Assembly: GCA_944386605.1 (NCBI GenBank)
Contig: CALXBS010000005.1
Coordinates: 1-56,360, forward strand
DNA length: 56,360 nt
Source of the DNA: an uncultured Clostridia bacterium
Lineage (GTDB): Bacteria > Bacillota > Clostridia > TANB77 > CAG-465
Reading direction: 5' to 3'
Both the position numbers and the translations under genes were made by a program. Numbering within the stretch: position 1 is the first letter of the stretch; each line of letters begins with the position of its first letter. A model generated the notes under the pieces. The model was not told where the DNA came from. It worked only from the letters and a program-made list of their open reading frames with translations, and did no database searches. Shown in pieces: positions 8,072-50,812 of the stretch.

Positions 8072-10423
8072 ATGATTTATAACAAATATTTAGATGAAGA
8101 AACAGATGAAAAAATTTCATCCCTATTAACTGGAATTAGAAGAATTGTGAATTTAAAAAATACAATTTTTGTTATGATTTCGCTTATTTTAGCGTCACAA
8201 AATTTTATTAGTGATTTCTTACCATTTGGTTTTGTATTATTAGCACTAGGAAGCGTTTTTAATGTACCACTGATTTTAATATTAATTTCTAGCACAATCG
8301 GTATGGTAATTAACTCTGTAGCGTCTACTAATTTATTTATGTTGCTGGGATTTTTTGTTATTTTTTCACTCATTACTGCTTTAATTAATATAGAAGGAAT
8401 TAGTAAAAAATATAGTGTCTTAATTAAATTTGTCATTTCACTTGCAGTGGTTTTGTTACTTACCAATTTTATAAAAGGACAATTTTTCATAGCATTAATT
8501 CCCTCTGTTAGTAACCTCATCATTTCTATTATCTTGTATTTTGTATTTGTAGCTGGACTTTCTGTTTTGATTCACTTGGGGAAAGGATATGTTTATTCTA
8601 CAGAAGAAAGTGTTGCTATGATAGCCGTCATTGCATTTGGGCTAACGATATTTAAAAATGTAAACTTTGTTGGATTTTCATTATTAGATATTTTACTTAT
8701 GATATTAATTTTAATTTATGGATGGAGAAATGGAGCCATTCTTGGAGCTACCGCAGGACTTATAATAGGACTTTTGATGACGGGGATGACAACAGTTTCT
8801 ATGAGCTTTATTGTTATTCTTGGATTTAGTGGTTTTATTGCAGGAATTTTAAAAAAAGTCGGAAAAGTAGGAGTGGTCGTAGGGTTTGTCATTGGAAATT
8901 TGTACATTTCATTTTATGCAAATGGTTTTTCAGAAATGACGGTTATGATAAGCGAACTTTTGATTGCTTCGGTGAGTCTACTTTTTATGCCTAAGCCTTT
9001 GGAATTAAAATTAGATCAATTATTTAATCAAAATATGACACTTGAAAAGCCATATCATAATATATTAGATACCACCACAGACGCCAAAGAAAAAATTGGT
9101 GCAGTCTCAGAAGTATTTGATAATTTAGCAAGTATTACGCTTGAAAATACACCTGAGGATGCGAAAGAAACAAGAAAGGTATTAAAAAAGTATATTTTAA
9201 ATTATGTTGAAAATACTTGTATTGGATGTCCGAATAAAAAGGAATGTATTGAAAAAGAGAATTTAGATTTAACCATTGATTATTTGGCGACAAAATTAGA
9301 GTATAATGAGAAGATCGAAAAACGTATGTTAAAGTTTGATTGTGAGCATTCAGAAGAAATTATTGATAATATTTATGATGTCTTTAATAGTATGAAATTA
9401 ATGAAGATTATGAAGCAAAAAGAGGCGGAAAATACCAAGAAACTTTCAAAGCAGTATAAAGATTTGTCTAAGATACTAGCAAATATTGCTAAAAATATGG
9501 ATCAAAAAACAATGGTACAAGATAAATCACAAGAAAATCTTCGCAATGAATTAAAATTTTATGGATTTTGTGTCTATGAAGATGAATTTAAACGTGAGGG
9601 AAAAAATATAGAATATGTTTTTGTAACGGATATATTAACCGATATTGACGGGCAGAAAAAACAAATTGTAAAAATTGCTTCTGAAATTCTAGAGCAAAAA
9701 ATGACCATTAAATTAATTTTAAATAGTAGTAAGAATGAAAAATCAAAAATTAAGTTAGTATCTATACCTGATTTTTCTGTTCAAACTGGAATTGCTACGG
9801 GTACAAAAAGTGGTGAGACAATTTCAGGAGATTCTTACCTTACAATGGAATTACAAGATTTAAAACAAATGAGTGTCATTAGTGATGGTGCCGGTTCTGG
9901 AGAAGTTGCTGCAAAGGGATCCAGTACGGTCATTAATATGCTTGAAAAGTTATTGAGTGGAGGATTTACAGAAGAAAAGGCAATTGAAATCATCAATAGT
10001 ATTGTAAAATTAAAGGGAAATGATACCATCTTTTCAACATTAGATACCATGATTATTAACTTAAGAACAGCGGAGACGGAGTTTATAAAAGTGGGGGCTG
10101 CTCCAACCTATATTTTAGAAGATGGAAAAGTCATTACCATTCATAAAACGAATATTCCAATTGGAATTTTAAAAGATACCGATTATGTTCCTGTTTGCAA
10201 AACATTAAAGGATAAAGATTTTGTAATTCAAATCTCCGATGGGGTTATTCAGGATGAAGATGATTTTAATCATAATTATTTGACAGAATATTTACAAACA
10301 TTAGATAATAGTAAATCTGCAAAAATGGTAGCGGAAGAAATTTATCATTTGGTTTTAAGACAGATGAAAAATAATTTAAAAGATGATGTTACAATTTTAG
10401 TAACAAAAATACGAAAAGTATAA
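8072..10423 (+). CDS. spoIIE: Stage II sporulation protein E (membrane PP2C phosphatase)
   Basis: About ten N-terminal hydrophobic segments and a central CxxC-x5-C region. C-terminal PP2C domain with SGDSY, ISDGAGSG, STLD, KVGAAP, ISDGV and DDVTI motifs. Confidence 0.85.
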   Translation: MIYNKYLDEETDEKISSLLTGIRRIVNLKNTIFVMISLILASQNFISDFLPFGFVLLALGSVFNVPLILILISSTIGMVINSVASTNLFMLLGFFVIFSLITALINIEGISKKYSVLIKFVISLAVVLLLTNFIKGQFFIALIPSVSNLIISIILYFVFVAGLSVLIHLGKGYVYSTEESVAMIAVIAFGLTIFKNVNFVGFSLLDILLMILILIYGWRNGAILGATAGLIIGLLMTGMTTVSMSFIVILGFSGFIAGILKKVGKVGVVVGFVIGNLYISFYANGFSEMTVMISELLIASVSLLFMPKPLELKLDQLFNQNMTLEKPYHNILDTTTDAKEKIGAVSEVFDNLASITLENTPEDAKETRKVLKKYILNYVENTCIGCPNKKECIEKENLDLTIDYLATKLEYNEKIEKRMLKFDCEHSEEIIDNIYDVFNSMKLMKIMKQKEAENTKKLSKQYKDLSKILANIAKNMDQKTMVQDKSQENLRNELKFYGFCVYEDEFKREGKNIEYVFVTDILTDIDGQKKQIVKIASEILEQKMTIKLILNSSKNEKSKIKLVSIPDFSVQTGIATGTKSGETISGDSYLTMELQDLKQMSVISDGAGSGEVAAKGSSTVINMLEKLLSGGFTEEKAIEIINSIVKLKGNDTIFSTLDTMIINLRTAETEFIKVGAAPTYILEDGKVITIHKTNIPIGILKDTDYVPVCKTLKDKDFVIQISDGVIQDEDDFNHNYLTEYLQTLDNSKSAKMVAEEIYHLVLRQMKNNLKDDVTILVTKIRKV

Positions 10424-10476
10424 AGTATAAAGTAAGAATATAAAAAAGAAAATAAAAAAAGTAAAAAAATAAAAAG

Positions 10477-10512
10477 AAAAGGCATGGCTCATCTAGTAAA
10501 CCATGCCTTTTT
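10477..10512. terminator. Bidirectional terminator between spoIIE and the convergent small gene
   Basis: AAAAGGCATGG...CCATGCCTTTTT with an A-run before and a T-run after. Confidence 0.75.
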
Positions 10513-10518
10513 GCGATA

Positions 10519-10752
10519 CTACCAGTTACGTGGGAAAATGTCTTTTCTTTGGCTTAACAAATAGACAAAAATGATACCGAGCACTGTGCTAAGAATATGG
10601 AACCCTAAGAAGGAGCCTATCGTAAAAATGACGGCAATCACTAATTCTGCAAATCCAAAGTAACGACTAAGCCTTCTAAACCGATATTCCCGCGGTGCTA
10701 CCATTTTGATAATCCACTCTACCAGGATAATAAATAATAATAAACGAAGCAT
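10519..10752 (-). CDS. Small hypothetical membrane protein (77 aa)
   Basis: Strong RBS AAGGAGGG, its own consensus promoter and 2-3 hydrophobic segments. Confidence 0.7.
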   Translation of the reverse strand: MLRLLLFIILVEWIIKMVAPREYRFRRLSRYFGFAELVIAVIFTIGSFLGFHILSTVLGIIFVYLLSQRKDIFPRNW

Positions 10753-10807
10753 ATAATGCCCTCCTTGAGTAAAAAAATGTTTTTACAGTTACCAAAAAAT
10801 TATAAAC

Positions 10808-10836
10808 ATTATACTATAGAAAAGGAATAATGTCAA
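10808..10836 (-). promoter_or_regulatory. Sigma-A consensus promoter
   Basis: TTGACA-17 nt-TATAAT on the minus strand. Confidence 0.75.
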
Positions 10837-10888
10837 ATTCATTACATAATATTTTTTTCATTTCATATAGTTTATTAATGGTGATCAA

Positions 10889-12169
10889 ATGCAACAGTTG
10901 ATTTTTGGAATAGAAAAAATAGTATGGAGTCCTTTTTTGGTATTTTTTTTACTGGCAATTCATTTATATTTTACTTTTAAATTAAAGTTTCCGCAAAGAA
11001 AAATGTGGAAAGGATTACTCCTTATATTTAAAAAAGAAAGTAAAAGTGGTATTCATTCTTTTCAAGCACTTATGACCATTTTAGCAGGAACATTAGGAGT
11101 AGGAAATATAGTAGGAGTAGCAGGAGCCATTACCATAGGTGGAATCGGAAGTGTTTTTTGGATTTTTATATCTGGAGTCTTTGCAATTGCTACAAAATAT
11201 GCAGAAACATATATTCCACTACGTTTTCGAAAGAAAGAAAAGGGAAAATATGTAGGAGGAGCAATGTATGTTTTAAAAGAAAAACTTGGCTTTTTAAAAC
11301 TTGCTTTTTTGTTTAGTGTTTTTGTTGTGCTATCTTCTTTTGGTAGCATTATGATTCAAGCAAATTCTATGGTAGAAATCATTAGCACAGAAATTCCTGG
11401 TACAAAAATATGTCTGGCGATTTTTGTTACGGTTATTGCATGTTATATTGTTTTTGGAAATGAAAAAAGAATTGCAAGTATTAATGGAATTTTTGTTCCT
11501 ATCGCAATTATTCTATATTTATATATGTGTGTATTTTTATTATTTCACTTTAAGGGACAAATCTTGATAGCCATTCAAAATATTATGCAGGAAGCCTTTT
11601 GTTTTAAGTCAGTCTGTGGTGGATTTTTTTCTTCTATTGCGATTCATGCGATGAATGTGGGACTTTCAAAAGGACTTTATTCAAATGAAGCGGGTATGGG
11701 AAGCTCTCCTTTATTTAATGTTAGTGTAGAGGGAAGTAAGAGTATAGAAGAAGAATCTTTAATTGCTTCTACCAGTGTTTTTATTGATACTGTGATCTTA
11801 TGTACCATTACGGGTGTGATACTAGTAGCAAGTAATGTATGGCAATATACAGATAGTGCGATTACTTTGGTAAGAGATGTATTTGAAATGGTACCAGGAG
11901 GAAAGTTTTGTTTAAATGTATCCATTGCCATATTTGCTATTTCGACTTTGCCATGTATTGGGTATAACGGACTGGTTGGAATTAAATATATTTTTCATAA
12001 CAAGAATTTTTATGAGTATGTATATAAACTAAGTTATTTAATTTGTACTTTTGTTGGTTGCTTAACCAGTGTAGAAATTGTTTGGTCTATTTCTTCTATT
12101 TTTAATGCATTTATGATTTTCCCAAATGTTATTATGTTATATTGCTTAAAAAAGGACATAAAGACCTAA
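10889..12169 (+). CDS. Alanine/glycine:cation symporter (AGCS family)
   Basis: SFQAL...LAGTLGVGNIVGVA.AI..GG.GSVFW, ATKYAE, GGAMY, GLYSNEAGMGS and VFIDT..LCT.TG motifs. Confidence 0.9.
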   Translation: MQQLIFGIEKIVWSPFLVFFLLAIHLYFTFKLKFPQRKMWKGLLLIFKKESKSGIHSFQALMTILAGTLGVGNIVGVAGAITIGGIGSVFWIFISGVFAIATKYAETYIPLRFRKKEKGKYVGGAMYVLKEKLGFLKLAFLFSVFVVLSSFGSIMIQANSMVEIISTEIPGTKICLAIFVTVIACYIVFGNEKRIASINGIFVPIAIILYLYMCVFLLFHFKGQILIAIQNIMQEAFCFKSVCGGFFSSIAIHAMNVGLSKGLYSNEAGMGSSPLFNVSVEGSKSIEEESLIASTSVFIDTVILCTITGVILVASNVWQYTDSAITLVRDVFEMVPGGKFCLNVSIAIFAISTLPCIGYNGLVGIKYIFHNKNFYEYVYKLSYLICTFVGCLTSVEIVWSISSIFNAFMIFPNVIMLYCLKKDIKT

Positions 12170-35429: not shown

Positions 35430-36134
35430 ATGGCACAAGAAATTTTTAATCGCATAGAGAAAAAGTATATGTTATATCAAGATGGGTATCAAAAATTAAT
35501 GCAAGAATTGGAACCATATATTACTTTAAATCCGTTTGGTCACCAAACGATATGTAATCTTTATTTTGATAATAGTACTTATGAAATAGCAAGAAATTCT
35601 ATTAGCAAACCTGTGTATAAAGAAAAAATTAGAGTAAGAAGTTATGGTATTCCAGATAAAGATACAAAAGTATTTTTAGAATTAAAGAAAAAATATAAAA
35701 AAATGGTAAATAAAAGAAGAATCGGTTTGACATTACAAGAGCTAGAAAGATATCTTTATTTTAATCGACCTCCAGAAAAAAATAAGCAAATATTTGAAGA
35801 GCTAGATTATTGTATTAAAACAAAACATTTAGTGCCTACCATGTATGTTGCTTATGATAGGGTATCTTATTTTGCAAACTCAGATGAAAATTTAAGAATT
35901 ACTTTTGATTCTAATTTAAGATATCGAAAAGAACACATCGATTTTGAATATGGAGATGTAGCTCAGAAATTTTTTGATCAAGATGTTTATATTATGGAGA
36001 TTAAAACGTTAAATGCTATTCCTTTATGGCTTGTTGATATTTTATCAAGGCTAGAAATATATCCAACTTCTTTTTCAAAGTATGGTGAAATATACAAAAA
36101 AGAAATATTAAAAAGAGAATGGGAGAGAGTTTAA
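35430..36134 (+). CDS. VTC / polyphosphate polymerase domain protein
   Basis: F.R.EKKY, I.NLYFD, KP.YKEK.RVRSYG, FLELKKKY, YDR, RITFD, MEIK and SFSKYG. Confidence 0.9.
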   Translation: MAQEIFNRIEKKYMLYQDGYQKLMQELEPYITLNPFGHQTICNLYFDNSTYEIARNSISKPVYKEKIRVRSYGIPDKDTKVFLELKKKYKKMVNKRRIGLTLQELERYLYFNRPPEKNKQIFEELDYCIKTKHLVPTMYVAYDRVSYFANSDENLRITFDSNLRYRKEHIDFEYGDVAQKFFDQDVYIMEIKTLNAIPLWLVDILSRLEIYPTSFSKYGEIYKKEILKREWERV

Positions 36135-36136
36135 CA

Positions 36137-36811
36137 ATGTTTGAAAGTATTTTAAATGAAAGTACAAGTAGTATTTCAATATCAAGTGCTTGTATTTGTA
36201 TGCTTGCTTCAATTATTTTAGGCCTTTGTATTGCCTTTATTCATATGAAGACAAGTAAATATAGTAAAAGTTTTGTCATTACGCTTGCAGTATTACCATT
36301 ATTAGTACAGGTAATTATTATGATGGTAAATGGAAATTTAGGAACTTCTGTAGCAGTTTTAGGTGCATTTGGCTTAATTAGATTTAGAAGTGCACCTGGT
36401 AGTGCAAAAGAAATTATTAGTATCTTTTTTGCAATGGCAGTAGGTCTTGCAATTGGTATGGGGCAAATTCTTTTTGCAGTTTTAATTACTGTTTTTGTTG
36501 GTTTAATGATAGTATTTTTATCTAAATCAAATATCTTAAATCCAAAAGGAAATGAGAAAAAATTAAAAATTGTTATTCCTGAAAATTTGGATTATAACGA
36601 AGTATTTCAAGATATATTTGAAGAATATTTAAACAAAGTAGAGTTAGAACAGGTAAAAACAACCAATTTAGGAAGTTTATATGAGTTAAGTTATGCTGTA
36701 AGTATAAAATCTGAAAAAAAAGAAAAGGAATTCATTGATAAATTAAGATGTAGAAATGGAAATTTAAACATTACTTTATCTAGAGAAATGTACGGTATCA
36801 ATGAATTATAG
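36137..36811 (+). CDS. DUF4956 family membrane protein
   Basis: SF..TLAVLP, IMMVNGNLG..VAV.GAF.LIRFRSAPG.AKEI, IPENLDY and LRCRNGNL.I. Confidence 0.9.
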   Translation: MFESILNESTSSISISSACICMLASIILGLCIAFIHMKTSKYSKSFVITLAVLPLLVQVIIMMVNGNLGTSVAVLGAFGLIRFRSAPGSAKEIISIFFAMAVGLAIGMGQILFAVLITVFVGLMIVFLSKSNILNPKGNEKKLKIVIPENLDYNEVFQDIFEEYLNKVELEQVKTTNLGSLYELSYAVSIKSEKKEKEFIDKLRCRNGNLNITLSREMYGINEL

Positions 36812-36820
36812 GAGGAAAGG

Positions 36821-38638
36821 ATGAAATATTATAGAGTAGGAAAATCAAATCTAAAAGTAATACTCATTATTATTGTTTTATTAATTGTGTTAGGTGGTAT
36901 CATTTGGATTGTGATGGATTCGTCTAGTAAAAAAATGAGTGGGGAAGATGTCTTAACAAGTGATTACCAAGCAAGTATTCGTCTGCAAGATAACAATTCT
37001 ACCATAGAGGGAAGTGGAGCTTCTGTAAATGGAGATGTTATTACCATTACACAAGCAGGTAAATATTATATTAGTGGATCTTTGAGCGATGGGCAGATTA
37101 TAGTGGACGCTACTTCTAATGATGAAATAGAACTTGTATTAGATTCTGTGGATATCACATCTAAAACAAGCAGTCCTATTTATATCAAGCAAAGTAAATC
37201 GACAACCATTTTACTTGCAGATGGTACTGTAAATGAATTAAGTGATACAAAAGATTTTGTATATACAGATGTTGTAGAAGAGGAACCAAATGCAACCATC
37301 TATTCTAAAGATGATTTGTATTTTACAGGAAATGGTGCTTTAAATCTTTCTTCTAATTTTAATGATGCCATTGGATGTTCAGATAGCGTAGTGATTGAAA
37401 GTGGTAATATTTCTATTGTTTCAGTAGATCATGGTATTAGAGCAAAAGATGGAGTAACTATTAAAGGAGGCGTAACAAAAATAGAGGCTTCTGGCGATGG
37501 TATTAAAACTAAAAATACAGAAGAAAGTGATAAAGGAAATATTGTTGTTGAAGGTGGAGAACTTGAAATTATTGCTACACAAGACGGCTTTGATTCTGCA
37601 AATGGAATTTATGTATCTGGTGGAGATTTAAATATAACAACTGGTGGAGGCAGTCAAAACGCTAGTACAAAAGAAAGTTGGGGAATGTGGCAAACTAGTA
37701 CAACTACAGAAGAATCTACAAGTGCTAAAGGAATCAAAGCAAATGCACTTCTTGAAATTAGTGGTGGTAACATCAGCATTGATTCTTCAGATGATAGTTT
37801 ACATTCTAATAATGATCTAACCATATCAGGAGGAACGCTTTCTTTATCTTCTGGTGATGATGGAATACATGCAGATAGTGAAATTATAATTAATGATGGA
37901 AGTATTGAAATTACAAAATCTTATGAAGGAATTGAAAGTACTAATATTACTATTGAAAACGGAGCTATTTCAATTGTAAGTAGTGATGATGGAATTAATA
38001 TTTGTGGTGGAAATGATAGCTCATCACTAGGTGGAAGACCAGGACAGAATATGTTTGAGGCAACAGATGGAGAATTAACCATTCATGGAGGAACTATCTA
38101 TGTAAATGCGTCAGGTGATGGTTTAGATTCTAATGGAAATATTGTTATGACAGGTGGAACTGTTTTAGTAGATGGACCTGTAGATGGAGGAAATGGTGCA
38201 TTAGACTATAACGGAACATTTGATATTAGTGGAGGTACTTTAATTGCAGTAGGAAGTAGAGAAATGGCTCAGTCCTTAAGCAGTTCTTCTACACAAGCAA
38301 GTATTTTAATTAATTTAACACAAGAAGCAAGTGCTAACCAAATAATCCATTTACAAAATAGTAATGGAGAAGAAATTATCACTTATGCACCAAGTAAAAA
38401 ATATAGTTCTATTGTAGTTTCTACGCCAAATATAAAGCAAAATGAAAGTGTAGAAGTATATTTAAGTGGTAGTCATAGTGGTACAAATACAAATGGTCTT
38501 TATACAGGTGGAAGTTATACATCTGGTGAACTACTTACAACCATTCAAATTACAGGAATTTTAAATTCTTATGGATCAGGTGGTATGATGAATAATATGC
38601 CAGGTGGAAATATGGGTATGCCAGGAGGTATGAGATAG
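36821..38638 (+). CDS. Carbohydrate-binding beta-helix protein (Cthe_2159 family)
   Basis: N-terminal TM; ITI..AG.Y.ISG.L.DGQI.V and repeated I.GG...I....DG/DDG coils; M/G/P-rich tail. Confidence 0.88.
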   Translation: MKYYRVGKSNLKVILIIIVLLIVLGGIIWIVMDSSSKKMSGEDVLTSDYQASIRLQDNNSTIEGSGASVNGDVITITQAGKYYISGSLSDGQIIVDATSNDEIELVLDSVDITSKTSSPIYIKQSKSTTILLADGTVNELSDTKDFVYTDVVEEEPNATIYSKDDLYFTGNGALNLSSNFNDAIGCSDSVVIESGNISIVSVDHGIRAKDGVTIKGGVTKIEASGDGIKTKNTEESDKGNIVVEGGELEIIATQDGFDSANGIYVSGGDLNITTGGGSQNASTKESWGMWQTSTTTEESTSAKGIKANALLEISGGNISIDSSDDSLHSNNDLTISGGTLSLSSGDDGIHADSEIIINDGSIEITKSYEGIESTNITIENGAISIVSSDDGINICGGNDSSSLGGRPGQNMFEATDGELTIHGGTIYVNASGDGLDSNGNIVMTGGTVLVDGPVDGGNGALDYNGTFDISGGTLIAVGSREMAQSLSSSSTQASILINLTQEASANQIIHLQNSNGEEIITYAPSKKYSSIVVSTPNIKQNESVEVYLSGSHSGTNTNGLYTGGSYTSGELLTTIQITGILNSYGSGGMMNNMPGGNMGMPGGMR

Positions 38639-38992: not shown

Positions 38993-39077
38993 TGGTGCGG
39001 GTAAAAGGACTTGAACCTTCACGCCGTTAGACATCGGCTTCTAAGACCGACGCGTCTGCCAATTCCGCCATACCCGC
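38993..39077 (-). tRNA. tRNA-Leu (anticodon TAG)
   Basis: The reverse complement GCGGGTATGGCGGAATTGGCAGACGCGTCGGTC-TTAGAA-GCCGATGTCTAACGGCGTGAAGGTTCAAGTCCTTTTACCCGCACCA forms a cloverleaf with a long variable arm and encoded CCA. Promoter TTGACA-17-TAATAT at 39123-39095. Confidence 0.95.
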
Positions 39078-40517: not shown

Positions 40518-40669
40518 AAAAGAAAGTAACCTCTTTTTTCAGAAAAAATATTATGTTTCTTGTATCATGAGAATAAAAAAAAACACTTGTAATAGGTTGA
40601 TTTAATTTTTTACATTTGATATACTAAACGTATATTTTGTATTTACCTGAAATGGGGGTTGCTTTCTAT

Positions 40670-43600
40670 ATGGAAAAAGAACAATATGGTTTAACTTTTC
40701 CTCAGAAAAATATTTGGTTAGTTGAAAAATATCACAAAGATATAGGAATTAACACTTTAATAGGAATTGTAAACATAAAAAGAGATTTTAATGCAAAAAC
40801 GTGTATTTTGGCATTAAATGATCTTCTTAAATATGATGAAAATATGAGAATAAGAGTAGATTTTGATGGAGAAAAAGCTACTCAATATGTTGCTGACTAT
40901 GAAGTAGAAGAAATAGAGATTGTAGATATGTCTAAATACTCTGATCAAGAAATAGAGGAGTATACTCAAAAATTGGCATCGCATTCTCTTTTTTTGTTAA
41001 ATGAGAAGCTATTTACTTTTAAAATATTTGAGTATCAAGATGGGACAGGAGCAGTTTGTTTTGCTTTGCACCATATTATGAGTGACGCATGGTCTGGCGG
41101 ATTGATTGTTTCTAAATTTGTAAAATATTATGAATTAGAAAAGAAAGGACAACCATTAAGTGAAGAAGTAATTCCTTCCTATTTAGACTATGTGGTAACA
41201 GAAAAAGAATATGCAGAGTCAGAAAAATATCAGAAAGATCAAGCTTTTTGGGAAGAATATCTAGCGGGAACGCCAAAAGTTGCTAGTTTAAAAAAAGTAA
41301 CAAAGAAAAGAAAAAATCATGCACAAAGATATAGTGTGATATTAGAACAGGATTTTAATCAAAAATTATTAGAGTTTTGCAAAGAAAACCGTATTTCTCC
41401 ATATACACTTTTTATGTGTATTCTTGGTATCTATATTTACAAAACCACTTATTTAGAAGATTTTATCATAGGAACACCTGTATTAAATCGTGGAAATTTT
41501 AAAGAAAAAAATATGATTGGCATGTTTGTATCTACCATTCCTTATCGTATGAAGATAACAGGGGAAGAAGAGGTTATGTCTTTTTGTAAGGAAACTACTA
41601 GAAATATTATGACTATTTTTAGACACCAGAAATACCCTTATTCAGAGATGTTAGAGTATGTTCATAAAAATACAAGTTTAAAGAGTAATCTTTACCAAAT
41701 TGTTCTTTCTTACCAAAATGCAAGAGCAGATTACCAAGGGTTAGAGGATTATTCTGCAACTTGGCATTTTAATCATTTATTAAATGAGGAATTACAGATA
41801 CATATTACAGATTTAAATAACAATGGTATATTAGAGATTTATTATGATTATTTAACCGATACTTTTTCAGAAGAGGAAATCAAACTGATCCATTTAAGAC
41901 TAATGAAGTTATTAAAAGATATAATGGATAAAGTGGATATGAAAATAAAAGAAGTGGATCTTGTTCCGGAGGAAGAAAAGAGATTATTGCAAGAGTTTAA
42001 TGTTACAAGTGTTCCTTATCCAAAAGAAAAGACAGTTGTTACTTTGTTAGAGGAACAAAAAGAAAAAACACCTGAAAATATTGCTCTCATTTATGGCAAT
42101 GAGAAAATGTCTTATCAAGAGCTTTGTCAAAGGATCGATCAATTTGCTTCTAATTTACAAGATATCAAAGGGGAAAATATTTTGGTATATGCTAAGAATT
42201 CTTTTGAAGTAGTGATTGCTATTTATGGAATTTTAAAGTCAGGAAATACCTATATTCCAGTTGGAATTGACACTCCATTAGATAGGGTTTCTCATATTAT
42301 AGAGGATAGTCATTGCCGATACGCAGTGTCTGATGTAGAGTTAAAGGATGTCATCTTACTAAATGTAAATCAAAAGAAAAATCCAAACTGGGTAAATAGG
42401 ATAGAAGCAAAGCCTCAAGATATTGCTTATATGATCTATACTTCTGGTTCTACTGGAAGACCAAAAGGTGTAAAAATTTCTCATCAGTCTCTTACAAATT
42501 ACATTTGGTGGGCAAAAAAATCGTATGTTACAACAGAACTTCCTGTTATGCCCCTTTATTCTTCTATTGGTTTTGATCTTACAGTAACAACGTTATTTAT
42601 GCCTTTAATTGCCGGTGGTACTATCCTTATTTGTAGTAATAACCATGAGGAAATTATTAATATTTTTAGACAGGATAATGTAAGTATTGTAAAATTAACA
42701 CCTGCACATTTATCGATTATTAATGAGGCAAATATTAAAATAAAAAATATTCATACATTGATATTAGGCGGAGAAGCTTTAAAAACCTCAGATGCAAAAA
42801 TGATTACGAGACTCGGAAATCGTATGAAGATTTTTAATGAATATGGCCCTACAGAAGCAACGGTTGGTTGTATGATTTATGAGTATAATGCAAAGGATAA
42901 AACAGAAACGGTTCCTATTGGAAAACCGGCAGATAATGTCTCTATTTATATTTTGGATAAAGAAAATAAATTGTGTCCTTTGGAAGTGGAGGGAGAACTT
43001 TGCATTGAGGGAGATGGCTTGGCACAAGGATATTACCATTTAGATGATATGACACGAAAAGTGTTTGTAAAAAATCCTGTAACAGGAAATAGGATGTATA
43101 AAACTGGGGATATTGCTAAGATGGGAATGGATCTTAATGTAAGGTACATTGGAAGAAAGGATCAACAAATTAAGATACATGGAAACCGAATAGAGTTAGA
43201 AGAAATTGAAAATATTGTAAAGGATGAATTTGATGTTAAAAATGCAGTCGCTACTGTTCAAAATGTATTAAATACCCCTAATATTTATTTGTATTATGTA
43301 TCTGATTATGAATATAGTGATGAAGTTTTTCAAAATAGGTTAAAAGAAGTATTACCAAGTTATATGATTCCTTTTAAATATATTAAAATTGATAAAATTC
43401 CAATTAATCGAAATGGAAAAGTGGTAAGAAAAGAATTGCCTTTACCAGAAGTAGTGATAAAAGAAGATAAAGAGGAAGTTTCGTATCAAAATGAATTAGA
43501 AGAGCTACTTTGCAAAACTTGGGAAGAATTGTTAAATATCAAAGGGGTTAGACCAACAGATCAAATTTTAGATTATGGTGTTGATTCTTTAAATATTATT

Positions 43601-44848
43601 AAATGCCAGGTAAAACTTTCTAATATTCTAGGAGTAATTGATATTCAAGCTTTTTATGATTATCCTGTGATACGTGATTTTTGCAATAATATTAGAAAGA
43701 AAAATAAAAAAGAAGAAATTTCTGTACGTGAATTAGAAAAGTACCAAGAAGTAATGCCACCTCAAAAAATTTCTTTGGAGGCAAAGGAAGGAATTATTTT
43801 AACAGGAGCTACTGGTTTTTTAGGAGTACATTTGTTAAGAGAATTTTTATTACGTAAAGAGATAAAAAAGATTTATTGTATTGTTCGAGGAATCGATTAT
43901 GAAAAAAGGCTATATAAACGTTTCTTAGAGTATTTTGGTCATGAGTATGATTCTTTATATCATGAAAAAGTACTTCCTATCAAAGGAAATATTGAAGAGG
44001 AAAATTTAGGACTTTCAGAACAAGAATTAGAACAAATTTTACCAAATGTTTTTAAAATTGTAAATGCGGCAGCTATGGTAAAACATAATGGAATTGTAAG
44101 AGAATTTCAAAGGATTAATGTGGTTAGTGTAGAAAGTTTAATTAAGCTTTGTTTAAAATATGATCTTGTACTAGATCACATTTCAACCATGAGTGTTTCA
44201 GGACAGGATGGTAGAAAAGCGTTAACAGAAGAACGTTTCTATATTGGACAAGATTACCAAATCAATCCATATATTACTTCTAAGTTTAAAGCAGAATACC
44301 TTATTTTAAAAGCACAAGATAGAAAAAAATTAAAGGCAAATATTTATCGTGTAGGAAATTTAACATGGCGCTATGCAGATGGAAAGTTTCAAGTAAATGA
44401 GAAAGATAATGCCTTTTTGATGAGTATTAAAAATATTTTAGATCTTGAGGTATATCCAAGTAGCTTTAAGAAAATAGAGCTTGAACTAACACCGGTTGAT
44501 GTAGCTTCTCATTTTATTGTTTCTTTGATGTTCCATGATTTGGATATTGTAAATAAGGTATATCATATTTGTCATTTAGATAAAGTAAAATTAACTACAT
44601 TGATCCATTGTTTAGACGTTCCGTTACAAGAAGTAGATGAAAATACGTTTTCTTTGAAAGCCAAAAACTTTGATACGGATGAAAATCGTATTTTAAATGA
44701 AGTATATCATTTTGCAAATATGTTAAAATCTAAGGTAGATAATAGAAAAACAATAGAAGAATTAGAGTCCATGGGGAAAAAATGGCCTCCGATTTCTAAA
44801 GAATATCTTGGTTATATTTTTGATATTATACATAGGGGGAAAAAATGA
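40670..44848 (+). CDS. Single-module NRPS: condensation - adenylation (Asn-type code) - thiolation - thioester reductase (C-A-T-R)
   Basis: C: LT.PQ..IW and HHIMSDAWS. A: YMIYTSGSTGRPKG, FDLTVT, NEYGPTEATV, MYKTGD, GRKD.QIKI.G.RIEL.EIE and NGK. T: GVDSL. R: ILTGATGFLGVHLL, HISTMSV and Y..SK..AE. Confidence 0.93.
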   Translation: MEKEQYGLTFPQKNIWLVEKYHKDIGINTLIGIVNIKRDFNAKTCILALNDLLKYDENMRIRVDFDGEKATQYVADYEVEEIEIVDMSKYSDQEIEEYTQKLASHSLFLLNEKLFTFKIFEYQDGTGAVCFALHHIMSDAWSGGLIVSKFVKYYELEKKGQPLSEEVIPSYLDYVVTEKEYAESEKYQKDQAFWEEYLAGTPKVASLKKVTKKRKNHAQRYSVILEQDFNQKLLEFCKENRISPYTLFMCILGIYIYKTTYLEDFIIGTPVLNRGNFKEKNMIGMFVSTIPYRMKITGEEEVMSFCKETTRNIMTIFRHQKYPYSEMLEYVHKNTSLKSNLYQIVLSYQNARADYQGLEDYSATWHFNHLLNEELQIHITDLNNNGILEIYYDYLTDTFSEEEIKLIHLRLMKLLKDIMDKVDMKIKEVDLVPEEEKRLLQEFNVTSVPYPKEKTVVTLLEEQKEKTPENIALIYGNEKMSYQELCQRIDQFASNLQDIKGENILVYAKNSFEVVIAIYGILKSGNTYIPVGIDTPLDRVSHIIEDSHCRYAVSDVELKDVILLNVNQKKNPNWVNRIEAKPQDIAYMIYTSGSTGRPKGVKISHQSLTNYIWWAKKSYVTTELPVMPLYSSIGFDLTVTTLFMPLIAGGTILICSNNHEEIINIFRQDNVSIVKLTPAHLSIINEANIKIKNIHTLILGGEALKTSDAKMITRLGNRMKIFNEYGPTEATVGCMIYEYNAKDKTETVPIGKPADNVSIYILDKENKLCPLEVEGELCIEGDGLAQGYYHLDDMTRKVFVKNPVTGNRMYKTGDIAKMGMDLNVRYIGRKDQQIKIHGNRIELEEIENIVKDEFDVKNAVATVQNVLNTPNIYLYYVSDYEYSDEVFQNRLKEVLPSYMIPFKYIKIDKIPINRNGKVVRKELPLPEVVIKEDKEEVSYQNELEELLCKTWEELLNIKGVRPTDQILDYGVDSLNIIKCQVKLSNILGVIDIQAFYDYPVIRDFCNNIRKKNKKEEISVRELEKYQEVMPPQKISLEAKEGIILTGATGFLGVHLLREFLLRKEIKKIYCIVRGIDYEKRLYKRFLEYFGHEYDSLYHEKVLPIKGNIEEENLGLSEQELEQILPNVFKIVNAAAMVKHNGIVREFQRINVVSVESLIKLCLKYDLVLDHISTMSVSGQDGRKALTEERFYIGQDYQINPYITSKFKAEYLILKAQDRKKLKANIYRVGNLTWRYADGKFQVNEKDNAFLMSIKNILDLEVYPSSFKKIELELTPVDVASHFIVSLMFHDLDIVNKVYHICHLDKVKLTTLIHCLDVPLQEVDENTFSLKAKNFDTDENRILNEVYHFANMLKSKVDNRKTIEELESMGKKWPPISKEYLGYIFDIIHRGKK

Positions 44849-46752
44849 TTAAAAAATTAAAAAAGTTAAAAGTAACTACAAAATTAATTCTCATTAATTT
44901 AGCAATGTATATCATATTTGGAGTATTGGTATATCCATTAATTCCATATTTGCTAAATTATCCACCAAATTCTATTGACAATGAATTTCAAACAACCGTT
45001 GTGGGAATGCAATATACAGAACAGTTTATCATGTTGTTTATTTTAGGTGTGGTATTGCTAAGTGCTATTTTGTATTTTTCTTTTAGAAAACTAAATCATA
45101 TTGAAGAATATAAACAGGGGAAAAGTGAGCAAGATAAGAAAAACTTGTTAAAGGTAAGAGACATTGCTGCAAATGGAATTTATCGATTGATTCCCACTAC
45201 TGTTTTGTGTATTGCAATAGGAGTAGGACTTATTCTAACACTTGCTTCTACTGAGTTTATGCTAACGGTAAAATTAACAGTAATACTTTGTATTTGGGGA
45301 GCTTTATCTAATTTGCTACTTTACGTATTTACTGCTAAAATTTTTCATAAGATATTAAATGATAGTTACTATTATATTGATCCTGATCAAGATAGTATTA
45401 AAAGGCTAGGATTAAAAAATAAAATGCGTATTCAAAATTTATCTGCAGTCCTTATTATCCTATTTATACTAACCTTTTTTGGATATTCTAGAATTCAATA
45501 TGAAAGAGGCGAATTTTTAAAAGAAAAAGAATTACGAGAATTAAATAGTATTATTTTAGAAGAAAAAGATTTGGATCATTTGATTGAAACAAGTCAAGAC
45601 AGCTATTTTATTATGACGAAAGATGGAGAAGTATTAAATGAAAATTGTGAAGTTAGTAAATTTGCAATAGAGTATATTTTGCATTTTCCAGAGATGAATA
45701 GAGTATACACACAATATGCTTCTTCTATCGAAGGTGTATATCAATTAGTTGATTACCACGGACAAGAATGTTATTTTGTAAAAATATATAATATTATGCC
45801 AAATTTTTATACCCTATATTTTGTTATATTTGACGCTGTTTTATTGCTTATTTATTATATCATTACAGGTGTATTTATTAGAAATATCAATAATGAACTT
45901 GCCATTGTTACAGACCGAATGAATGTGATTGGTGATCGTACAGATGAAATTGGAACCAAAATTGCCATTACTTCTAATGATGAGTTTAGTGATTTGGTAC
46001 GTGCATATAACAAAGTGCAGAAAAACACAGAAAATTATGTAAAAGAAATTAATGAAAAACAAGATATCATCGTAAAACAGGGACAATTAGTATCTATTGG
46101 TGAACTTGCCGGAGGAGTAGCACATGATATCAATACACCTATTTCTGCAATTAAGACAGGTATTACCATGTTAAATCAAGCAGATAATTTGACACCAGAA
46201 CAAAAAGTGATTTTAGAAAGAATGGATAGTTGCTCTACGAAAATTATTAATATTGTAAACAGTATGAGAAATCAGATTAGAAATCTTGGTTCTGATCATG
46301 TGGTTGATTTTAAAATTAGTGATGTTATTAATGATGTTAAAGTTATTACTTATCATGAAGTCACTAAAAGCAAGGCTGAGTTAAGAATAAAAATAGAAGA
46401 TGATTTGGTAATTCAAGGAGATCCAACTAAACTTGGTCAGGTATTAACCAATATGGTGGTAAATGCAGCACAAGCCTATACAAAACAAGAAGGCGGAAAA
46501 ATTGAGATTACAGTTATGAAAGCACCTAATCATTTTGCGATGATTAAGGTAACTGACTTTGCTGGAGGAATACCAGAAGAAGTACGACCATACATTTTTA
46601 AAAATATTTTAACCACAAAAGGAACTAGTGGAACAGGGCTTGGCTTGTATCTTGCTTATTCTGTTATAAAAGGAAATTTCCATGGGGATATTACCTATGA
46701 AACGAAAACGGGTGTGGGTACTACTTTCTATATCACGATTCCAAGAGCTTAA
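44845..46752 (+). CDS. Multi-TM sensor histidine kinase (HAMP-HisKA-HATPase), no adjacent response regulator
   Basis: About six hydrophobic segments, HAMP SNDEF.DL..AYN, H-box GELAGGVAHDINTP, N-box QVL.N.V.NA, D.AGGI, TTKG..GTGLGL and GT.F.I.IP. Start overlaps the NRPS stop (ATGA). Confidence 0.93.
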   Translation: MIKKLKKLKVTTKLILINLAMYIIFGVLVYPLIPYLLNYPPNSIDNEFQTTVVGMQYTEQFIMLFILGVVLLSAILYFSFRKLNHIEEYKQGKSEQDKKNLLKVRDIAANGIYRLIPTTVLCIAIGVGLILTLASTEFMLTVKLTVILCIWGALSNLLLYVFTAKIFHKILNDSYYYIDPDQDSIKRLGLKNKMRIQNLSAVLIILFILTFFGYSRIQYERGEFLKEKELRELNSIILEEKDLDHLIETSQDSYFIMTKDGEVLNENCEVSKFAIEYILHFPEMNRVYTQYASSIEGVYQLVDYHGQECYFVKIYNIMPNFYTLYFVIFDAVLLLIYYIITGVFIRNINNELAIVTDRMNVIGDRTDEIGTKIAITSNDEFSDLVRAYNKVQKNTENYVKEINEKQDIIVKQGQLVSIGELAGGVAHDINTPISAIKTGITMLNQADNLTPEQKVILERMDSCSTKIINIVNSMRNQIRNLGSDHVVDFKISDVINDVKVITYHEVTKSKAELRIKIEDDLVIQGDPTKLGQVLTNMVVNAAQAYTKQEGGKIEITVMKAPNHFAMIKVTDFAGGIPEEVRPYIFKNILTTKGTSGTGLGLYLAYSVIKGNFHGDITYETKTGVGTTFYITIPRA

Positions 46753-46821
46753 TGAATAGAAATAACGAATGAAATAATCATTAATGAACGAAAAATAAAA
46801 ATGAATAAAAGAAAAGGTAAA

Positions 46822-46852
46822 TTGGGGTGGATTTAAATTCGCTCCAATTTTT
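46822..46852 (+). terminator. Terminator of the NRPS-kinase unit; diverged third copy of the 27751/29761 hairpin
   Basis: TTGGGGTGGATTTAAATTCGCTCCAATTTTT. Confidence 0.65.
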
Positions 46853-47050
46853 ATATTTAATAATATATTTAGAATAAACATCTATAGAAACGACTTTAAC
46901 ATTATATTTTGGTTAATTGCAACTTTTTGTTGACGAACAAAAGAAATTAAAGTATAATCTATATTATGTAACTTAGTAGTTGGTCACCACATAATTGTGT
47001 GAGGAATAGGTAAGGAGGAATTTTCAAAGTGAAAATTTAGAATAAAAGAT

Positions 47051-47812
47051 ATGATTACTGTTAACCAAGCAAAAAGAGGTAAGGGCATGAAGGAAGTAAT
47101 AAAAGAACTATCATTAAAATTTGGTCTTGAGGGAATGGAAATTAAAACCACTATATCTAATGATGATCTTTTAGAGTGGGTTTTATTTAAGACAAAGTTC
47201 GAGTCTTTATATTTTAATTTCCCCGAATTAACAGAAAATGGTTTGAAATATTGCCAAGTCATTTATGAATTCAGGAGAAATGGTAAAAAAATAAAAATGG
47301 TTGTAACAGAAGAAATGCTTTATGTGGAAAGCAATATCTACTCTCTAATCAATATTGAGACAAATGATTCGGTAAATTTACTGGAAAGGAATCCTAAAGA
47401 ATTGATGGCTGCCATTCAAAAGTTTTTAAGAAGTGAGAGATCTAGAACATACTATGATGGGCTAGAGAGGTATATCACTTTAGTAAGAGAGCTAGGACTT
47501 GAGCTGAAGCAGATTAAAAATTTAGATATGAGCTCAATATGTATAGAAGAAGGAGAAATCAAACTGCTCCGTGAAGAAAAAAGATCTTTTTTTATCGAGT
47601 ATGCCTGGGGAAAATGCAAATATATTGATGAGGATTTTGAAACTTCTGAAATAACGGAGGGGAACTTTGAACTAATATTGCGTGGGAGTCTTAAAGAAAT
47701 TGAGGAGATGAAATTAAGTAAATTGTTGGCAAGAGCTAAAAAAAGAATGAAAAACATTCGCTTAAAGGTGAAGCAGTTTAATGAAAAAAATAAAAAGGAT
47801 ATCTTAGTTTAA
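47051..47812 (+). CDS. Hypothetical protein (start uncertain: 47051, 47087 or a frameshifted 47029)
   Basis: Long ORF with promoter TTGACG-17-TATAAT (46930-46958) and a terminator at 47823-47861. Confidence 0.7.
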   Translation: MITVNQAKRGKGMKEVIKELSLKFGLEGMEIKTTISNDDLLEWVLFKTKFESLYFNFPELTENGLKYCQVIYEFRRNGKKIKMVVTEEMLYVESNIYSLINIETNDSVNLLERNPKELMAAIQKFLRSERSRTYYDGLERYITLVRELGLELKQIKNLDMSSICIEEGEIKLLREEKRSFFIEYAWGKCKYIDEDFETSEITEGNFELILRGSLKEIEEMKLSKLLARAKKRMKNIRLKVKQFNEKNKKDILV

Positions 47813-50053: not shown

Positions 50054-50812
50054 ATGGAACAGTTAGTGGAAAATTTTTTGGCGAATGGGCGGAGTGAGCA
50101 GACATTTATGCAAATGTACTTATCTTATGTGAAGACACGTTATTTAGACTATTTGCAGTTAGAGACGTTAGAAGAGTTTAAAAGTTTTCTAAGCAGTAAT
50201 TTTGATGAGGAGACAGTTAAAGAGGCACTTGAATCATTAAAGCACTTTTATCAGTATTTGATTAAAAGTGGGAAAATAGATAAAAAAAGCTTCTCATCAA
50301 GAGTGTTTTCGCAAAATTTAACGGTTGGCCCTATTAGTATTTTTGCTTTTTGTGATAGTGTAGGTAAGCTAACAAATCATTTAATTAAAAGAATCCGTGA
50401 AAAAGAATTTAGAAATAATGAATTATTTTTGTTACGGGATCTTTCGATTATTTATTTGTTGCTAGATACAGATCTAACTTTTTACGAGATTTCAAAGTTA
50501 ACTTCTGGTAATTTGCGATTTAGAGATGGATATCTTAAGTTTCAGGGAGATAAGCAACAAACGCTTATTGTAAAACTTGCAAAAAGAGATATTACCGCAT
50601 TAGAAAATTACTTGGAGATGTATGAGAAAAGTGAGGGAAGAACAAGCTATCTGTTATTTTTTGGAAGACAATCCGATGTTTATCAGGAAACACTTTTTAA
50701 TCGGAATTTAAAAGAATATTCTAAAAATTTCGGGATTACTACGAGTGTAAATGCTAGTCAGATCAGAAAAGTGGGACAGTTTTTAAGAGGATATAAGATT
50801 GAATTAGAGTAA
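50054..50812 (+). CDS. Degenerate tyrosine-recombinase (XerC/D-like) fold protein lacking the catalytic residues
   Basis: SLKHFYQYL and RDLSIIYLLLDTDLTFYEI.KL (compare RD.A...LL..TG.R..E...L). The HxLRH box reads ASQIRK, and the ORF ends before the catalytic Tyr region. Own promoter at 49972-50000. Confidence 0.6.
   Translation: MEQLVENFLANGRSEQTFMQMYLSYVKTRYLDYLQLETLEEFKSFLSSNFDEETVKEALESLKHFYQYLIKSGKIDKKSFSSRVFSQNLTVGPISIFAFCDSVGKLTNHLIKRIREKEFRNNELFLLRDLSIIYLLLDTDLTFYEISKLTSGNLRFRDGYLKFQGDKQQTLIVKLAKRDITALENYLEMYEKSEGRTSYLLFFGRQSDVYQETLFNRNLKEYSKNFGITTSVNASQIRKVGQFLRGYKIELE

Follow-up and report, generated by a model that had tools for sequence, protein, structure and literature searches.

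Does a sensor kinase whose gene overlaps that of a peptide synthetase sense what the synthetase makes? This question is raised by a locus on a contig of an uncultured Clostridia bacterium (GenBank assembly GCA_944386605.1, contig CALXBS010000005.1; the 56,360-nucleotide stretch analyzed is referred to as the window), in which a gene for a single-module non-ribosomal peptide synthetase (NRPS) is directly followed by one for a membrane-bound histidine kinase. The original prediction, made from the letters of the window, had described the two as a candidate synthase and receptor pair. In the locus and its relatives, we observed that the two genes are linked, that they co-occur across genomes, that they form a mosaic of cassettes and that the substrate pocket signature of the synthetase co-varies with the sensor of the kinase. 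Judging from these sequence comparisons, we consider it fairly probable that the kinase is the receptor of the NRPS product, and that the two genes encode the synthase and receptor sides of a signaling system based on a small molecule.

The NRPS gene (40670..44848, plus strand) encodes 1,392 residues in a single module with condensation (C), adenylation (A), carrier (T) and thioester reductase (R) domains, in the order C-A-T-R. A GGGGG stretch lies about 10 nt upstream of its ATG at 40670, and the list of open reading frames (ORFs) gives 40637 as a further opening. The kinase gene (44845..46752, plus strand) encodes a histidine kinase with six transmembrane (TM) helices. ORFs, Pfam matches and a terminator-like hairpin with a T run (46819..46850, plus strand), which closes the two-gene unit, bear out the layout initially described, namely a C-A-T-R NRPS whose TGA stop overlaps the ATG of a multi-TM kinase (ATGA at 44845-44848), followed by one terminator. 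Terminator-like sites in the region number 5 compared to 2.5 expected from shuffles, and the hairpin at 46819-46850 is the sole one on the plus strand.

Kinase and NRPS matches share contigs in 40 relatives. The loci of 28 relatives were retrieved for gene-order comparison; among the 26 with both genes at the locus, the kinase directly follows the NRPS on the same strand in 25 and directly precedes it in one (G032). Single relatives carry just a fragment of the kinase (G031), have the two genes at two contig ends (G010) or encode the kinase and lack the NRPS (G024). At a larger scale, presence was scored in 301 genomes of the order, using thresholds of our own choice (kinase E≤1e-25, NRPS E≤1e-80) and assemblies whose incompleteness bears on all presence and absence counts. 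The kinase was found in 241 genomes and the NRPS in 240; comparing the two presence tables by hand yielded 236 genomes with both genes, five with the kinase only (G024, G100, G194, G123, G061), four with the NRPS only (G158, G126, G211, G235) and 56 with neither. Joint absences fall into several genera, examples being g8, g2 and g21, with 7/15, 1/5 and 11/13, respectively, for both genes. Complementarily, scanning species-representative genomes with the kinase alignment returned 80 kinase loci, about a dozen of which coincide with the loci compared above. The NRPS is directly upstream in 66 of them and directly downstream in two; one locus has an NRPS fragment upstream at the contig end, one has an NRPS near a broken kinase, three are undecidable and seven have no NRPS. 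How often kinase homologs lie beside an NRPS, a check suggested along with the original prediction, can thus be answered with nearly always, as the two genes directly adjoin in 69 of the 77 decidable loci.

Outside the order, the kinase is present in 24 of 383 Clostridia genomes sampled in a class-wide draw. The 14 loci retrieved from outside the order comprise ten with the gene order NRPS-kinase-REC/HD-GYP, one with kinase and regulator behind a 543-residue ORF and three with other tandem kinases, and a complete Dehalobacter chromosome shows the order phosphopantetheinyl transferase (PPTase)-NRPS-kinase-REC/DUF3369/HD-GYP. Because the pair is conserved in relatives, its pairing is not by chance; NRPS and kinase are kept together across the whole order of gut Clostridia. 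According to the record titles, the 80 kinase loci include ones from uncultured Clostridia of human, rabbit, chicken and ruminant guts. Four kinase-only genomes of the window's family (G024, G100, G194, G123; loci L068, L070 and L071 were inspected) carry the kinase together with its regulator and no NRPS, which fits cells that listen to signals made by others.

The kinases carry two kinds of sensor module: type A, which is that of the window and belongs to no Pfam family, and type B, composed of HisKA_7TM and PAS. For co-variation analysis, we assembled 53 non-identical type-A pairs of single-module NRPS and kinase. Sensor distances correlated with those of the NRPS A, R and C domains at 0.82, 0.87 and 0.75, respectively, compared to 0.36-0.46 for the kinase core against the same three domains and 0.39 for the core against the sensor. 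In partial Mantel tests, pocket signature and sensor remained correlated given the core (0.51, p=0.0005), whereas signature against core given the sensor yielded -0.17. Similarly, between kinases with a core identity of at least 80%, sensor identity was 78% for pairs of the same signature (n=14) and 35% for pairs of different signature (n=34). When each genome was used only once, the 15 disjoint pairs above the same core threshold, equal in core identity (85.7 for same versus 84.4 for different signature), had a sensor identity of 75% with the same signature (seven pairs) and 37% with different signatures (eight pairs; p=0.004). The sole disjoint pair with different signatures and a similar sensor has signatures that differ at 1/10 positions. 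The NRPS therefore diverges with the sensor region of the kinase and not with its core, so that the second check suggested, like the first, comes out in favor of the prediction. Since the sensor changes along with the substrate pocket and the transmitter remains that of the lineage, we take the kinase to be the putative receptor of the product.

The same pattern is visible at single loci. Between L089 and L107, identity is 81-89% for six upstream genes, 93% for the regulator, 82-92% for genes further downstream and 91% for the kinase core, as opposed to 33% for the sensor and 42% for the NRPS, with differing pocket signatures. Identity jumps at kinase residues 400-430, which is the HAMP/DHp junction. 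Within the genus of the window, G003 is the closest relative of the window genome, and thus closer than G013, in RmuC (85% versus 77% identity), in a REC-pseudokinase regulator encoded on contig C2 (78% versus 60%), in a REC-HD-GYP protein (81% versus 66%) and in the kinase core (77% versus 74%). Its NRPS, in contrast, is 35% identical to that of the window (G013: 50%), its sensor is of type B (7TM-PAS; G013: type A, 51% identical) and its pocket signature is another one, whereas G013 shares the signature of the window genome. Within the genus, cassette type thus does not follow relatedness. For type-A cassettes, NRPS and kinase sensor form one hypervariable block inside conserved flanks, transmitter and regulator; the pair behaves as a unit in being kept, lost and exchanged.

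Which molecule might be made can be narrowed down from the enzyme. Pfam places Condensation at residues 4-440, AMP-binding at 460-789, PP-binding at 946-1006 and the reductase family NAD_binding_4 at 1044-1282, and all four domains lie on the plus strand. The C domain (40679..41989, residues 4-440; PF00668, 270 bits) has the active-site motif HHIMSD; its nearest solved structures are generic NRPS C domains (E ~1e-22), a comparison that does not discriminate the starter subtype. The A domain (42047..43438, residues 460-923) exceeds the TIGR01733 cut-off (353 versus 317 bits) and carries the ten-residue pocket signature DLTKIGEVGK, extracted, as were all signatures, at positions located from GrsA landmarks. 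This signature is 1/10 positions off that for asparagine in the published table. The T domain (43505..43687; PP-binding, 29.7 bits) holds the serine motif GVDSL, and the R domain (43793..44809, residues 1042-1380; PF07993, 140 bits) holds the motifs TGATGFLG and YxxxK and stays below the TIGR01746 cut-off (172 versus 213 bits). With C, A and R domains all recognized, the NRPS is, by its sequence features, a type I module with a terminal reductase. Among the NCBIfam rows, AusA scores best, with 547 bits versus a cut-off of 2500, so the NRPS is not an AusA equivalog.

No further Condensation domain was found in the whole assembly (1.66 Mb in 90 contigs, 92% complete), which otherwise holds one stand-alone ACP and three other AMP-binding enzymes. 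From the domain order we infer that the product is an amino aldehyde or alcohol, either acylated or free. The lipo-amino-aldehyde originally named needs revision, its sole basis being this same domain order and no Sfp-type PPTase having been found in the assembly; Sfp-type PPTases are encoded near the NRPS in G032, G036 and Dehalobacter. Pocket signatures are highly diverse, with 36 different ones among 101 A domains (duplicates counted), including DFWNIGMVHK, DVWHFSLVDK, DSELTAEVCK and DILQMGMVWK in relatives. As an additional observation, many loci of other families (L077-L137, e.g. L081, L086 and L094) have a gene for an HtrA-like protease (Trypsin_2 and PDZ) divergently upstream of the NRPS, and in some of these loci a gene for a 575-residue AMP-binding protein is also found divergently upstream. 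Second NRPS copies occur as well: G295 (contigs C1, C3) holds a second complete NRPS-kinase cassette and G143 (contigs C14, C23) a second NRPS on another contig.

In the kinase, Pfam recognizes HisKA (residues 419-475) and HATPase_c (525-634), preceded by a hydrophobic N-terminal stretch of 400 residues without a Pfam family. The sensor module (44845..46038, plus strand, residues 1-398) is predicted to comprise six TM helices, an outside alpha/beta domain (residues 243-316) and a HAMP-like hairpin, with the motif LNYPPNSI in an outside loop and the topology assigned by the positive-inside rule. Its AF2 model has a mean pLDDT of 89.7; a fold search with the sensor returned nothing at E≤0.001, the weak rows being PAS-like folds and a WalK integrative model. 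The transmitter (46039..46752, plus strand) consists of a DHp domain with His427 and a CA domain, and H427, N536, N540, D571, G575 and GTGLGL are invariant in the kinase alignment A1. With the H box histidine, the N and G boxes and HATPase_c present, the protein is, by its sequence motifs, a HisKA-type sensor histidine kinase. Across the genus, the kinase core is 60-77% identical whichever sensor type it is joined to, and two-module NRPSs are paired with a type-B sensor in every case seen. Some genomes have tandem duplicate kinases behind one NRPS (G041:C2:43586-46136).

Where would the signal go from the kinase? The window kinase is the only one of seven in the assembly that does not adjoin a regulator, and it had been described as an orphan acting in a two-gene system. 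The synthase and receptor part of this description stands as the best reading; the two-gene part does not, because relatives encode a dedicated regulator in the same operon and the kinase is therefore not truly an orphan. In other families, a gene for a 350-residue REC-HD-GYP protein follows the kinase, directly or one gene on. The window genome encodes one HD-GYP protein (contig C18:20568-21596; locus L055:1486-2511), 42% identical to one of the operon-linked proteins. This candidate was dropped: the REC-HD-GYP protein is present in 24/24 genomes of the genus, including 11 without the kinase, and its acceptor position holds Asn in 11/11 genus proteins examined, in contrast to Asp in the operon-linked proteins of other families. 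The genus protein resembles a pseudo-receiver joined to an HD-GYP domain that is intact in other respects.

The most likely partner, to judge by distribution and domain content, is the unlinked REC-pseudokinase protein on contig C2 (P0003; G000:C2:30374-31405; locus L153:2375-3406, minus strand), which has 344 residues. Its receiver is intact and is followed by a helical hairpin and an alpha/beta domain, for which the closest solved fold is that of the hybrid regulator LvrB (E 7e-15) and which also match kinase DHp-CA cores, and the kinase-like part of the family has no conserved His. This regulator is found in 59 of the 78 genomes of the window's family, compared to 0/223 in the other families of the order. 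Within the family, 57 genomes have both kinase and regulator, one has the kinase only (G169), two have the regulator only (G018, G158) and 18 have neither, that is, 57/58 kinase-bearing genomes have the regulator. In G117, from a sister genus of the same family, the genes form an NRPS-kinase-REC/pseudokinase operon, in which the regulator is the third gene and starts 13 nt after the kinase. Type-A kinases without an NRPS (L075, L076, L078, L121) are likewise followed by a relative of the REC-pseudokinase regulator (41% identical), and in L075, L076 and L078, these kinase relatives (~9914-11959) lie after mutS. Loci of the L075/L076/L078 type may be the source of the transmitter and regulator of the window's family.

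Two further searches concerned outputs. A scan for c-di-GMP riboswitches gave no match, and is uninformative, as the RF01051 control matched nowhere either. Spo0A is encoded on contig C20 (158.6 bits), besides three Spo0A-like paralogs, and nothing was found that links Spo0A or these paralogs specifically to the window kinase. The paralogs are response regulators with weak Spo0A_C-like output domains (C18:4707-6238, C7:24266-24988), two of them convergent neighbors.

From the observed patterns, we infer the product chemistry, export, sensor binding and output of the system as follows. The NRPS would load one amino acid, predicted to be asparagine, which the N-terminal C domain would probably acylate and the R domain would release as an aldehyde or alcohol. 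The product would leave the cell and be recognized by the kinase translated from the same transcript, through its membrane and outside portions, and the kinase would phosphorylate a dedicated regulator that is not a DNA-binding protein. For most related families, this would be the REC-HD-GYP protein encoded right after the kinase, resulting in a synthase-sensor-HD-GYP layout, and in the window genome it would most likely be the REC-pseudokinase protein. NRPS and sensor would diversify as one cassette, and different species would therefore use different signal and receptor pairs, or pherotypes.

Several points weigh against this proposal. The product, its binding, phosphotransfer and the phenotype are all predicted from sequence. 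The relatives are not independent of each other, so that fewer events underlie the data than the counts suggest; those genomes of the genus that lack the kinase resemble one clade, with distinctive residues common to 3/3 examined, and the joint loss of kinase and regulator in the genus may be a single event. Co-variation is weak for type B, with sensor identities of 0.51-0.68 for the same and 0.46-0.61 for different signatures, based on few same-signature pairs. The 92%-complete assembly has no Sfp-type PPTase, the only match being an AcpS-sized ORF of 138 residues, and no exporter gene was found near the pair. DNA-binding domains are missing from both regulator types, and an autoinduction loop is therefore not evident. 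Co-transcription of NRPS and kinase, finally, is putative: in a chicken-gut metatranscriptome, short contigs are identical to 42649-42903 and 43105-43483, both inside the NRPS, and to neighboring genes, and no contig of this one RNA library, which can also hold DNA, bridges position 44845.

Other explanations account for parts of these data. The kinase could sense the NRPS product for self-monitoring or protection rather than density signaling, the product itself serving mainly in antagonism or protease inhibition. R-terminated NRPSs of gut Clostridia are reported in PMC12327764 to give peptide aldehydes acting as protease inhibitors, such as ruminopeptin. The HtrA-like protease gene that many loci of other families carry in divergent orientation upstream of the NRPS points in the same direction, and hypervariable cassettes also fit an arms race. 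However, no immunity or export gene accompanies the pair, the outputs are second-messenger or protein-interaction regulators, and receptor-only genomes that retain the regulator suit listening better than self-protection; we regard this explanation as unlikely. Another one, in which the sensor would respond not to the product but to the free amino acid used as substrate by the A domain, is matched by the co-variation equally well when this is taken alone. A dedicated ligand is suggested by the receptor-only genomes and the tightness of the operon, and, as a weak argument, amino-acid sensors usually belong to the Cache or PBP type, whereas the window sensor returned weak PAS-like rows. Detection of the substrate is thus very improbable.

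The kinase might also sense an unrelated environmental cue and merely share an operon with the NRPS or control it, given that two-component regulatory genes are common inside biosynthetic clusters; the type-B sensor, which varies little with the pocket signature, would be consistent with this. In type A, the type of the window, the sensor in contrast changes with the signature while core and flanks stay constant, only 1/8 disjoint pairs of different signature kept a similar sensor (with the 1/10 difference mentioned above), and the partner regulators lack DNA-binding domains, leaving an unrelated cue with a small chance. Similarly doubtful is that the kinase serves sporulation by direct phosphorylation of Spo0A, as had initially been suggested. 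Orphan kinases of Clostridia are established to act on Spo0A in this way, Spo0A is present, and the window kinase is the sole one of the seven without an adjacent regulator, yet beyond these facts the link has gained no specific support. Relatives encode a dedicated regulator in the operon itself, and regulator and kinase tend to be present together (57 genomes with both, one with the kinase only), and 20/78 sampled genomes of the family lack the kinase, a count that covers the kinase alone.

We return to the kinase as putative receptor of a dedicated signal and compare the pair with known systems. In agr (AgrB/D/C/A) of staphylococci and comQXPA of Bacillus, signal-making genes likewise adjoin a membrane histidine kinase, and the synthase and the sensor half of the kinase are hypervariable while transmitter and regulator are conserved, giving rise to specificity groups; comQXP shows the same hypervariable-block pattern. 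Their signals are ribosomal peptides, whereas the maker in the window is a one-module NRPS with a reductase, and their regulators bind DNA and close an autoinduction loop, whereas the pair and its relatives would use HD-GYP or pseudokinase proteins. CqsA/CqsS and LqsA/LqsS also place one synthase gene beside a multi-TM kinase, which detects a lipophilic small molecule within the membrane; CqsA and LqsA are pyridoxal phosphate (PLP)-dependent acyl-CoA transferases in contrast to the NRPS here, and we know of no cassette hypervariability of this kind in either system. RpfF/RpfC/RpfG (DSF, Xanthomonas) combines a synthase with a sensor kinase and with a REC-HD-GYP regulator, a layout that recurs in sister families and other Clostridia. 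The DSF synthase, however, is of the crotonase type and the signal a fatty acid, and the layout fails in the window genome, where Asn occupies the acceptor position of the HD-GYP protein. The R-terminated NRPSs of gut Clostridia that give dipeptide aldehydes and ruminopeptin, and AusA, share the terminal reductase and the origin from gut Firmicutes; the window NRPS differs in having one module and not two and in scoring far below the AusA cut-off.

A further case is Vfm of Dickeya. According to PMC9306890, Vfm uses a non-ribosomal signal, with A-domain signature polymorphism defining signal-specific groups demonstrated by biosensors, signal transduction runs through VfmI and VfmH, a two-component pair, and the locus spans 26 genes with stand-alone A domains. 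The same source states the polymorphism link for agr and describes synthase and sensor co-variation as the pattern that identifies agr receptors, its absence having excluded VfmI, which lacks a ligand-binding domain and shows no co-variation; it is an ABC permease that co-varies (PMC9306890). Non-ribosomal signal, A-domain signature groups and two-component transduction would thus be shared, whereas the system of the window counts two or three genes, its NRPS is of type I, and the kinase sensor itself co-varies. In our literature search, the module was undescribed and the Vfm work came nearest; with thin coverage of subscription journals and supplements, an earlier mention is possible.

Whether gut and other anaerobic Clostridia hold a widespread, unrecognized class of quorum-sensing systems, with a one- or two-module NRPS signal, a co-evolving kinase, cassettes exchanged like pherotypes and HD-GYP or pseudokinase outputs instead of transcription factors, appears evenly balanced to us. 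If so, a large group of uncultured gut Clostridia with small genomes would possess its own chemical language, with dialects predictable from the A-domain signature. NRPS clusters of gut anaerobes would gain a role besides antibiotics or host protease inhibition, and a non-ribosomal signal would be tied to HD-GYP signaling in Gram-positive anaerobes. The loci also provide natural matched pairs for testing how receptors track a changing ligand, such as L089/L107, with 91% core identity and different signatures.

The surroundings of the pair are those of a two-gene unit. RmuC is encoded upstream, and a 253-residue ORF without a family and then a PBP downstream; annotation of these neighbors agrees with the initial statement that no regulator, exporter, tailoring enzyme or PPTase adjoins the pair. 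The 152-nt gap after rmuC contains a promoter-like site (TTTACA-16-TATATT, 40609..40636, plus strand) with 10/12 consensus positions, a weak hint in view of promoter-like sites being no commoner here than in shuffles (59 versus 52.9). Horizontal transfer was considered by composition and set aside, as the GC content of the pair (29.5%) gives no signal against that of the genome (28.8%). The 253-residue ORF (47051-47812, plus strand), which matches no Pfam family, is covered by contigs of the RNA library and preceded by a promoter-like site with 11/12 consensus positions (46930-46958), and is not kept beside the pair in relatives. Further downstream, a 252-residue ORF (50054-50812, plus strand) has a weak Phage_integrase match (21.8 bits; curated cut-off, 27.1). 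Upstream of the pair, consecutive genes for a VTC domain protein, a DUF4956 protein and a Cthe_2159 carbohydrate-binding protein occupy 35430-38638 on the plus strand, followed by a tRNA-Leu gene at 38993-39077 on the minus strand.

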